A DNA stretch of 63,538 bases, the filler included, from Stramenopiles sp. TOSAG23-6 (taxonomy: Eukaryota): assembly GCA_900128565.1 (NCBI GenBank). It is 25 parts of 25 records of this genome, joined end to end, with 100 filler letters (N's around TTAATTAATTAA, not from the genome) between each part and the next. Parts side by side here need not be neighbours in the genome. Positions count along the whole stretch, not along the records: positions 50,999 to 53,427 come from LT638051.1; 24 more parts are not named here. The stretch is one strand, 5' to 3'. Shown one piece after another: positions 50,999 through 53,368 of the stretch. Position numbers and translations under genes: made by a program. The notes under the pieces were generated by a model that saw nothing but the letters and a program-made list of their open reading frames with translations, did no database searches and had not been told where the DNA came from. Within the stretch, counting starts at the first letter, position 1. Each line of letters starts with the position of its first letter.

Positions 50999-53368
50999 AT
51001 GATGATGATAATGATAATAATAATGATGATGATGATAATAATNATGATNATGATAATAATGATGATGATGGAGTCTCCGATATGTTTGCAATGTTTGCTT
51101 CTGATGATGATGATAATAACAGTGATAATAATAATAATAATGATAATGATGATAAAGTCGTAACAGATGCTAAACCTGAAATTATCAATGTATCCCTTCC
51201 ATCAAGTTTTTCTGGTAAAAGTCCAAAAGATTTACTCTTAGAATATGCCCGTAAAAGTAATGGAAATAAAGCACTCGCTAAGCCAATATATAATCGATTA
51301 TTTAGTCGTGGATCATCTGGTAGTGGACGTGCATTACATCGCTGGATAGTTTTATTACCTCCTCACAAAAATAGACCAAGATGTTTTTTTTCATCATTAA
51401 TTTCAATTTTTTTTTTTTTGGTAAAACATTTTGTATCTAACGATTTTTTTTAACCAAAAAAAATTAATAATCTTCACAATACATCTGCTCCTCAAGACAC
51501 GATGCGTTTTGAAATGCCGGAAAATCAGTATTGTAAAACAATGAAGGAAGCACATAATTTAGTTTCTGCCATTGCATTGTTTAAATTAGTTCCAGGGCAA
51601 CAAATCCAAGTACATTTTTATCATCGATGTTTTTTTTACCTACACTTTTTCGTATAAAAATTCCGTATCTAACATTTTTTTTTTTTTCTAAAACATNTTT
51701 TTTTTCACTNTACANGTAAGACTTGCTCCAGTGTTTAAAACATTATGGCAGTCCTGGTTACAATCAGTCGCTGATAAACGAGAAAAAGATATGAGAGAAG
51801 CAGCTGCTCCTCGTGATCTTTTTCTTTCAAACGTTATGAATTCAATAATTTCTCTTGGAAAAAAAAAAGGTGATACTCAACAAATTCGAAATTCGTTTGG
51901 TATGAAAGTAGATATGGATTTAGTTTCTGGGAGTATTGTTCCACAGATGCAGAGGTCTACAATAAGTAGTACTAAAGAAAGTTCTCAAATTCGAAATTCG
52001 TTAGGTACGAAAATTGGTATAGATTCAATTTCTCTAAAGGAAAAATTTTCTCAAAGGACGAAAAGTAAAATATATCAAAACATGTTAAAACAACGACAGT
52101 TATTACCCATGACAAAACTTAAAAATAATATTATAGATACATTACAAAAACATGACGTCATTGTTGTGTGTGGTGAAACTGGGAGTGGAAAATCCACTCA
52201 AGTACCTCAATATATCCTTGAAAGTGAATGTACGTTTTATATGAATTTCTAATGTAATGTTTTTTTTCATACGAAATTTCGTACCTAACAAATTTTAGTT
52301 TTTTTTTTTGAAATATTTTTTCACAATACATTATTATCTGGTGTAGGCGAAACTTGTCGTATTGCGTGTACTCAACCACGTCGTATATCTGCATCTAGTA
52401 TTGCAACGCGTGTTGGTGTTGAAATGGGAGACCTTGGGCGTTGTGGTGATAAAAATTCTCTTTGTGGTTATCATATTAGAGGTACACGACGCATTGGTGA
52501 AGAGACTCGTTTAATTTATTGTACGTTTTCATTATGAATTTCAAATTTATTTTTTTTTCATACGAAATTTTGTACCTAACAAATTTCGAATTTAATTGTT
52601 TTTACAATATATGTACTACTGGAATTCTTTTACGTCAATTACATAGTAATCGTCTTCTGGATCAATATTCACATATCATTATTGATGAAGTTCATGAAAG
52701 ATCTTTACAATCCGATTTTCTTCTAGTTGTTTTAAGACAAATTCTTGAAGAACGAAATGGAGGGAATTATGGTCGGTCAAATCATGCACGAAATGAAGTA
52801 ATAAATGATAATGTAAATACATTTAGTATGCCAAGTGATGAATGTAACCCTAACCCTACGTTTTCGAGTGAAGAAGAAGAAATGAATGGTACAAGTGATA
52901 TGGAATGTAATGATTCCTGGGAATCAAAATTATCACAAAATATAACTACACAAAAAAATACACAAAAAAATACATTAAAAAGTACGGGAAAAAATACTCA
53001 AAATTTTAAACAAAAACATCAAAAACGACAAAATTTTAAACAAAAAGATTTGAAACCTCTGAAAGTTATTCTAATGAGTGCTACTATTGATGCAAACAAG
53101 TTTTCCAAATATTTTGGAGAATGTCCTGTTATAAATGCTCCGGGAAGGGTACGTTTTCATCATGAATTTCAATTTTATTTATTTTTTCATATGAAATTTT
53201 GTACCTAACAAAAACATTTTTTTTTTTATCGTGAAAATTCCATAGTTAACAATTTTTTTTTTTTTAAATATGTTTTCGGAATACATACATTTCCAGTTGA
53301 TGTCTTTCATCTTGAGGATATCATTGAAGTGACAAAATATACTTGTGAACAAGATGCTCCTAATTCAT
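50999..53368 (+). CDS. DEAH-box RNA helicase, DHX29-like (partial); introns 51383-51484, 51610-51715, 52230-52331, 52521-52612, 53149-53286
   Basis: GETGSGKSTQVPQ, CTQPRRISA, Y/CTTGILLR, DEVHER, MSAT, PGR/TFPV. Confidence 0.92.
52230..52331 (+). mobile_element. Representative Introner-like GT-AT intron (near-consensus copy)
   Basis: GTACGTTTTATATGAATTTCTAA...CATACGAAATTTCGTACCTAAC...GAAATATTTTTTCACAATACAT; nearly identical to 36837-36935 in an unrelated gene; AT on both flanks. Mobility is inferred. Confidence 0.7.

Follow-up and report, generated by a model that had tools for sequence, protein, structure and literature searches.

To our knowledge, introns that do not end in AG form a majority in very few known lineages. 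U12-type introns show variant ends (AT-AC and, rarely, GT-AT or AT-AT), and introners of Micromonas and Aureococcus were reportedly described by Huff et al. in 2016. The discussion of PMC7789003 presents the introners of these two genera with canonical GT..AG ends. The passages of the same paper on Amoebophrya describe more than 60% non-GT..AG introns, repeated families and direct repeats of 3-5 nt that span the borders, an origin from miniature inverted-repeat transposable elements (MITEs) being suspected; no dinucleotides dominate, inverted repeats of 8-20 nt form hairpins, and U1 was not found. For the fritillariid larvaceans Fritillaria borealis and F. pellucida, the passages of PMC13326754 on intron ends give mostly non-AG 3' ends, with 3'AT the commonest (34% and 44% of introns, respectively). 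In these introns YAY forms the last three bases and often also stands before the 5' site, 5' ends are diverse and mostly AG (AG/AC, AG/AT), ambiguous borders were settled from unambiguous cases, and an introner origin is discussed (PMC13326754). Here we describe a repeated intron family with GT-to-AT boundaries in DNA of Stramenopiles sp. TOSAG23-6. The window, meaning the whole stretch of DNA that was analysed, is 63,538 bases long and consists of 25 contigs of 2,427-2,463 bases each, ordered by length and joined via N44-TTAATTAATTAA-N44 linkers; contig GC content ranges from 19 to 36%, the source being an AT-rich marine eukaryote.

These elements are probably spliceosomal introns of one young, transposon-like (introner/MITE-like) family, running from GT to AT, in which each copy carries its own signals. 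The repeated unit is ~90-140 nt long and comprises (AT)GTAYGTTTT, a T-rich stretch, TTTCRTACGAAATTTYGTACCTAAC, a T-rich tail and finally CACAATACAT or CCAAAATACAT, which gives the family consensus (AT)GTAYGTTTT...TTTCGTACGAAATTTYGTACCTAAC...T-rich...CACAATACAT. The 9-mer GTACCTAAC occurs in 41 exact copies in the window, against 0.16 expected from shuffles. When 20 copies were aligned, the blocks and the 5' GTA[CT]GTTTT were conserved and the final T was invariant, while the copies as a whole have diverged from one another. RNAalifold predicted 0 pairs of consensus secondary structure among these 20 copies, and the terminal inverted repeats are short (4-6 nt, ATGTAT / ATACAT, plus weak TTTT/AAAA).

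For a census we curated 30 family introns with both ends inside one contig, leaving out the locus at 9727, where two in-frame ends are possible, both AT. All 30 complete copies lie in sense relative to the surrounding reading frame, and their hosts include helicase, ABC transporter, adenylation enzyme, RETSAT-like, SNF2 helicase, RPA-like, POT1-like and other genes; many near-identical copies in unrelated genes and in sense orientation is the pattern of an introner or MITE. The 5' end is GT in 28/30 copies, as in a U2-type splice site (GTRAGT / GTAYGT). A branch-like CTAAC motif is present in 26/30 copies; in 24 of these it stands 32-55 nt before the 3' end, and the remaining two have a branch-like YTRAY nearer to the 3' end. 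The succession of branch-like TACCTAAC and T-rich tail corresponds to a U2-type branch and pyrimidine tract. The 3' end, in contrast, is not the U2-type YAG: it is AT in 26/30 copies, TT in two, GT in one and AN in one.

The position of the boundary was read at three junctions, J1, J2 and J3 (Table 1), which an earlier sequence-only reading had named with coordinates and border letters that match the sequence. Register 0 denotes the GT..AT boundary, and negative and positive registers are shifts to the left and right. At J3, positions 53149-50 are GT and 53285-86 are AT (GGAAGG/GTACG...GAATACAT/ACATTTCCAGTT, a slash marking each boundary), so that register 0 joins GGAAGG to ACATTTCC. Because the alignment of the upstream exon with human DHX29 stops at R757, and that of the downstream exon starts with its F at Y759, one junction residue is left and there is no insertion or deletion. 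When 70 full-length homologs were aligned with MAFFT, the columns at this junction read G70, R70, T68 (I1, M1), H57/F10/Y3, P70 and V70; the set is rich in plants and amounts to 70 sequences rather than 70 independent lineages, and DHX29, animal and fungal hits and environmental loci agree with it. Register 0 gives GRTFPV, -1 GSTFPV, -2 GNTFPV, +1 GRAFPV, +2 and +3 GRVFPV, and +4 GRVLPV. Each register from -2 to +4 other than 0 thus places a residue found in 0/70 homologs, including +4, which is likewise GT..AT and is ruled out by its V and L (0/70). This bears out the earlier claim that the motif arises here only with GT-AT. Among environmental relatives the motif is unbroken in 38/80 loci, mostly as PGRTFPV. 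No alternative register yields the same mRNA at J3 (slide range 0..0) and, having no terminal repeat, this junction alone fixes the register. The next family intron begins with a 5' site at 53369 and is cut by the contig end.

At J2, on the minus strand, 22397-96 are GT and 22295-94 are AT (AGTGA/GTATG...ATATAT/GTATGAG). The fourth residue after SALD is E in 242/243 D-loops from 120 ABCB-type homologs, and in place of this Glu a shift of -1 gives V (0/243) and one of -2 gives M, so left shifts do destroy DSESE, as had been proposed. At J1, 52521-22 are GT and 52611-12 are AT (TTATT/GTACG...ATATAT/GTACTAC), and register -2 gives TTA ATT TAA, the predicted stop being read directly; the junction codon is Cys, matching 66/70 homologs. 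The proposal that the three junctions break the tie stood against left shifts at all of them, but J2 slides over 0..+5 and J1 over -1..+4 with unchanged mRNA, and only J3 is sufficient by itself.

Right shifts, which lay outside the alternatives that the sequence-only reading compared, are excluded at J3 (T68 vs A0, V0) and at three other junctions. At 52230 a shift creates TGA; at 12254, register +1 of the intron at 12158-12254 turns GGAYM into GGAYV, where homologs have M50 and V1 (n=60); and at 11104-11373 register +2 turns ECH-D into ECH-V, where homologs have H60/60, D60/60 and V0. The Arg after 22096-22208, which register +1 would change, we take to be the conserved H-loop Arg. When the five introns of the DEAH helicase gene were removed at register 0, 51136-53368 was left without a stop, and removal of the six introns of the adenylation gene gave 513 codons without a stop, with all six junctions gap-free against homologs. 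Across the three genes that have named homologs, 14/14 complete introns (helicase 5, ABC 3, adenylation 6) end in a base other than G (13 AT, 1 AN). Taken together, protein conservation and open frames support register 0 (GT..AT) as the sole register that is compatible with all tested junctions, J1-J3 bounding it on the left side.

Table 1. Introns of the family, family-like introns and the exons flanking J3. Ends are given at register 0; a slash marks an exon-intron boundary.
Feature	Positions	Strand	Ends	Remarks
J1, DEAH helicase gene intron	52521..52612	+	GT..AT	92-nt family intron
J2, ABCB-type transporter gene intron	22294..22397	-	GT..AT	104-nt family intron between SALDSES-E and YEIQ
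J3, DHX29/DHX57-like DEAH helicase gene intron	53149..53286	+	GT..AT	138-nt family intron
Exon before J3	52613..53148	+		TTGILLRQL...DEVHERS...SATIDANKFSKYFGECPVINAPGR; aligns with DHX29 679-726 and 728-757
Exon after J3	53287..53368	+		TFPVDVFHLEDIIEVTKYTCEQDAPNS; aligns with DHX29 759-781
DEAH gene intron	52230..52331	+	GT..AT	Family intron, AT/GT..AT; register +1 creates TGA
DEAH gene intron	51610..51715	+	GT..AN	Diverged family intron; last base N in assembly
DEAH gene intron	51383..51484	+		Diverged family intron, AT/GTTTTTTTT...ACAT
ABC gene intron	22527..22663	-		AT/GTAAT...CTACAT/G; junction codon ATG
ABC gene intron	22096..22208	-	GT..AT	Between IAH and RVST; register +1 = Arg to Gly
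Adenylation (NRPS-like) gene intron	12347..12447	-	GT..AT	
Adenylation gene intron	12158..12254	-	GT..AT	Between GGAY and MPIE
Adenylation gene intron	11482..11584	-	GT..AT	
Adenylation gene intron	11104..11373	-	GT..AT	270 nt, between SECH and DVS; carries CCCTAA-like repeats
Adenylation gene intron	10794..10893	-	GT..AT	Between GEVY and VGGP
Adenylation gene intron	10366..10472	-	GT..AT	Between LVAY and IVP
RETSAT-like gene intron	37339..37453	+	GT..TT	Family intron; junction codon T/GG = Trp
Family intron	54404..54520	-	GT..TT	TT upstream too; frames open both sides; basis: frames
POT1-like OB-fold gene intron	41902..42006	-	GT..GT	Family intron; frames open both sides; basis: frames
Family intron	19087..19186	+	GA..AT	5' GA at register 0; host protein matches no family
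SNF2-type helicase gene intron	37899..38004	+	AT..AT	Family intron between LQEL(Y) and SLLHFLEP
P450-reductase-like gene intron	33835..33983	-	GT..AG	Family-like; tail ...TTGAAATATTTTTTCACTATATAG/ (...CACTATATAG/)
P450-reductase-like gene intron	33475..33684	-	GT..AG	Family-like; tail ...TTTTTCATCAATATAG/ (...CATCAATATAG/), between ISYKT and ADNVGILP

At register 0 the 30 copies comprise 24 GT..AT, two GT..TT and one each of GA..AT, AT..AT, GT..GT and GT..AN. The boundary given by the sequence-only reading therefore holds at the named junctions and in 24/30 copies as the majority form, while the other six have different ends. When every mRNA-neutral register is counted, GT..AT is possible in 24 copies, TG..CA in 18, TA..TG in 16 and AT..AC in 15. 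The RETSAT-like gene intron at 37339-37453 can be read as TT..AC, TG..CT, GT..TT or TA..TG; as no allowed register ends in AT, this ending is usual and not obligatory. The Trp at its junction fits KD[PSG]S[FW]..RFP, with equal spacing in three relatives.

Two GT..AG introns in a P450-reductase-like gene lie outside the 30-copy census and share the family tail. Reading frames there contain 0 stops with AG ends, and ending the introns 2 nt earlier brings in 8 stops (33835-33983) and 4 stops (33475-33684). The exon after 33475-33684 matches yeast CPR 296-340 weakly (E 0.08), starting from the exon's second residue. AG thus stands in this gene at the position that corresponds to AT elsewhere, and one cut position serves ends in G and in T. 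A PDB search with the SNF2 downstream exon and the reductase upstream exon returned no match. The AT..AT intron is therefore placed by frames and known motifs, as is a GT..AG intron on one of its two sides. The boundaries in terms of coding sequence, the repetition of the family and its sense orientation, and the common cut position for AG, AT, TT and GT ends are all shown by the sequence.

The final two nucleotides of the intron equal the two preceding GT in 24/30 copies (22 AT, 2 TT), a count in which one start coordinate was corrected by hand. Both TT-ending copies have TT upstream, for which the probability by chance is ~0.014 by hand calculation, given TT upstream in 4/30 copies. Since the match extends to the TT-ending copies, the matched border dinucleotides, including AT, look like a 2-nt target-site duplication or a target preference. 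A duplication would be of the kind made by DNA-transposon introners, splicing then taking out the element together with one of the two copies.

The mechanism that we propose would use four signals in each copy: a 5' site GUAYGU, a branch-site-like UACCUAAC past a short palindrome (CGUACGAAAUUUCGUAC), a U-rich tract, and a 3' end ...CACAAUACAU/ that would be cut after the final U. The intron would begin with the G of GT and end with the T of AT, with the preceding AT belonging to the exon. A U2-type spliceosome that accepts U, and on rare occasions another base, where G is expected at the 3' site would remove it, and the 3' site would be set by position after the conserved tail and not by AG. 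The family would have spread by insertion with a 2-nt target duplication. Beyond this, we tentatively entertain a more specific model, to which we give somewhat less than an even chance, in which splicing here no longer needs AG: the cut would fall at a fixed place after the transposon-borne tail (...AAUAC plus 2 nt: AU, UU, GU or AG), those 2 nt being the duplicated target. This would be an independent, protist-side origin of fritillariid-type AG-free splicing, driven by one introner family.

Two readings would shift the boundary to the left. If the introns were AT..AC (U12-like), the exon would end two bases earlier and the intron would end in ...ATAC, which would suit the AT that precedes GT in 22/30 copies, the 15/30 copies in which this register is mRNA-neutral, and the resemblance of CCTAAC to the U12 branch consensus. 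The same register, however, gives TAA at J1, M at J2 (vs E 242/243) and N at J3 (vs R 70/70), and the upstream AT is missing in 8/30 copies. U12-type introns are defined by a branch ~10-20 nt from the 3' end and no pyrimidine tract, whereas here 32-55 nt separate the branch motif from the end, a long T tract follows it, and the 5' end is GTAYGTTTT, not RTATCCTT. This leaves the AT..AC reading with next to no probability, and we rate TG..CA introns, with transposon-like ends one base leftward, just as low: they are mRNA-neutral in 18/30 copies, but would give GSTFPV at J3 (S 0/70) and V at J2 (0/243). The sequence-only reading had dismissed both boundaries, and the three named junctions do contradict each of them. 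GT..AG introns of the ordinary type, using a TTTTAG after the branch motif and leaving a tail of 30-40 nt in the translated mRNA, are modelled in the predicted coding sequence (CDS) P0002, which uses such an AG at 52230, and an AG is found 2-17 nt after CTAAC in 9/26 copies. Such introns seem highly improbable, given that 17/30 copies have no AG after nt 40, that the tail is divisible by three for only 4/13 AGs, that homologs align without insertions across every tested junction, and that P0002 lacks the conserved CPVINAPGR at J3.

It is also very hard to credit that the elements are never removed, being recent gene-breaking transposon insertions or artefacts of assembling an amplified single-cell genome. 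Fragmentation of the assembly, the self-inverted contig at 28116-30565 and the RNA-library contigs that retain the intron speak for this; against it, 14 insertions lie between codons in three conserved genes, exact removal restores motifs and open frames, and the 30/30 complete copies in sense are mutually diverged. Non-standard removal, whether structure-guided (as proposed for euglenid nonconventional introns or Amoebophrya introners) or by ciliate-like DNA excision, is improbable without being negligible. Its appeal lies in the non-AG end, the short complementary ends (ATGTAT / ATACAT) and the 2-nt direct repeats at both borders in 24/30 copies. Yet both the 5' site and the branch motif have a conserved, canonical form, a hairpin is not predicted (0 pairs in 20 copies, with nearly constant borders), the TT/TT copies keep a direct and not a complementary repeat, and some copies end in AG. 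Ciliate-type TA excision that keeps one TA would remove 136 nt at J3, breaking the frame and FPV. Spliceosomal removal with a relaxed last base is the likeliest mode, because the 5' site, branch and T tract are U2-type and the other modes do not fit these features.

Several points weigh against the spliceosomal, target-duplicating family that we favour. A U at the 3' end of an intron conflicts with the second splicing step as known in most eukaryotes. Earlier YAT triplets are skipped, as is the AG 2-17 nt past CTAAC in 9/26 copies, so that neither feature by itself would mark the true 3' end. Plants and oomycetes predominate in the homolog sets, which are non-independent samples. The border match is absent in 6/30 copies, including J1-J3, and the lack of an upstream AT at these three fits a simple target-duplication origin poorly. 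An ancestral AT could not have been accommodated at J3, given the conserved Arg codon there. Some copies would accordingly have arisen otherwise, perhaps by conversion of an older intron or by reverse splicing, or else the upstream AT is a target preference. In RNA, four runs (three seawater metatranscriptomes and one of unknown kind) were compared with 51716-53427, and no contig in them bridges J1 or J3 in spliced form. Two RNA-library contigs instead run unspliced from exon into intron (X9 record 13 = 52425-52545; X11 record 6 = 53279-53386), and these could be pre-mRNA or carried-over DNA. The joints listed in RNA contigs have short sides and link repeat copies. The observation of GT..AT boundaries was nevertheless confirmed, and its interpretation as splicing is supported in silico by protein conservation and open frames.

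Contigs of X9 and X11 stack on the intron repeat, with a summed depth of thousands to tens of thousands, and hardly on exons; the intron family or its relatives abound in RNA libraries from seawater. Seawater metagenomes contain parts of the tested stretch. Metagenome contigs searched with the exon protein gave 80 loci with a best identity of 73%, none of them from the same organism and none with GTACCTAAC. Protein searches returned no transcript-derived near-identical proteins, the only near-identical ones being P0002 and P0241, both mis-spliced. P0002, from the 51136-53427 locus, translates the tail FFFFEIFFHNT after its TTTTAG, reads through J1 and loses CPVINAPGR. P0241 (36900-37760, RETSAT-like gene) likewise translates intron pieces and drops conserved motifs. 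Gene models of the source organism are unreliable wherever the intron family occurs.

In the same RETSAT-like gene, the exon at 35992-36390 (+) switches frame ~17 codons before the 5' splice site, at 36330-36390: the long frame ends in ...EITWPSHM, and the frame that continues into YPIGGSQEI is ...ERNYVAFSY. The change would reflect either an assembly indel or an unrecognised small intron, and because of it the gene was left out of the whole-gene frame test. Across 35762-38208 the RETSAT-like gene is followed by a T/A-rich intron-like stretch (37644-37780) and then by SNF2-type helicase exons in the same orientation; these may be neighbouring genes or a chimeric join via the repeat.

Pieces of the family occur in other settings. 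A tandem array at 57786-58060 (-), in units of ~41 nt made of the family central motif (CATACGAAATTTCATACCTAAC plus an A-rich spacer), lies inside an intron starting at 58073. In the helicase exon at 51870-52020 (+), two stretches of CAAATTCGAAATTCGTT[TA]GGTA[TC]GAAA... are the reverse complement of the family central motif and are translated in frame as QIRNSFGMK / QIRNSLGTK; here part of the element, in antisense, seems to have been turned into coding sequence. Motifs of the family lie within 120 nt of 19/50 contig ends, and the repeat seems to break the assembly. The contig at 28116-30565 is an inverted duplicate of itself, with identical open reading frames (ORFs) at 28196-28792 (+) and 29889-30485 (-) and a palindromic centre at ~29340, and is a chimera of the type produced by whole-genome amplification.

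The telomere-like CCCTAACCCTA, which holds two repeats, occurs 22 times in the window against 0 expected, for example at 748-758, 952-962, 28615-28625, 38087-38097, 52848-52858, 54194-54204 and 57047-57057. Many copies stand in frame inside long ORFs as Asn-Pro-Asn-Pro, with the C-rich strand as sense, and others close to the 5' end of another intron type, GTAYGTTTTTTTTAACCCTAACCCTA..., at 44050, 53699 and 58073 (-) and 37644 (+). Directly past the stop of the ABC gene, its last coding stretch occurs a second time (21890-22010 (-), GGAAAATTATTCCAAAA...ATTAAAAGACAAGTTT), and the second copy has CCCTAACCCTA in place of three bases. Domains encoded by ORFs of the window include Kelch, DPP-IV, AMP-binding, protein kinases, ankyrin, EF-hand, Dna2 and flavodoxin, together with POT1-like OB fold, RPA, PH, NIF, PX and CS, all ordinary eukaryotic. 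In a protein search the best named relatives of the adenylation-domain gene were oomycetes and other stramenopiles, at 48-56% identity. The source name attached to P0002, a predicted CDS identical to part of the window, agrees with this affinity. Rfam and tRNA scans found no rRNA, snRNA or tRNA in the window.

If confirmed by cDNA, the family would offer a simple case of 3' splice-site choice without AG, in which one family keeps canonical 5' and branch sites and only the last base is changed, and would allow asking whether an invading transposon reshapes 3' splice-site choice. Gene finders bound to GT..AG misread genes that carry it. Should AG-free splicing at a fixed place be true, most gene models of such genomes would be wrong, and the element would leave the RNA as though it had never been inserted. 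A literature search, with supplements and subscription papers outside its scope, turned up no account of GT..AT introners forming a family in this kind of organism, and a term search of the main texts of three papers on genomes of uncultured or cultured marine stramenopiles (PMC5778133, PMC12614181, PMC8163842) returned nothing about splice sites or non-canonical introns. The window introns, which would be introner-derived and non-AG, with T as the last base behind a canonical 5' site, are best seen as a variation on known intron types.

So far as the cited passages describe the fritillariid introns, the likeness to them lies in the last three bases, which are YAY in 24/30 window copies (with YAY as the upstream three in 13/30), and in borders that are ambiguous and were resolved via unambiguous junctions here too. 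The window family differs from them in its conserved 5' site GTAYGT, its single dominant family and the stramenopile relatives of one gene of its host, and with its GT 5' end is not of the Fritillaria type. With Amoebophrya, as characterised in the passages above, it shares a marine protist host and repeated non-canonical intron families; its borders, however, are nearly constant, its 5' site suits U1 and folding predicts no consensus hairpin. Variant U12-type introns likewise tolerate a last base other than G and have a CCTAAC-like branch motif, but the window family departs from them in its 5' consensus, its T tract and the distance between branch motif and 3' end. Many short introns of nearly the same sequence, spread over unrelated genes, are what the window family has in common with the introners of Micromonas and Aureococcus, within what the sources above say of them. 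The short terminal inverted repeats and the target-site duplications of those introners may have counterparts in the 4-6-nt complementary ends and the matching border dinucleotides of the window family. In those genera splicing removes the element and one copy of the duplication, whereas in the window family the duplicated dinucleotide (AT, twice TT) would itself form the last two bases of the intron.

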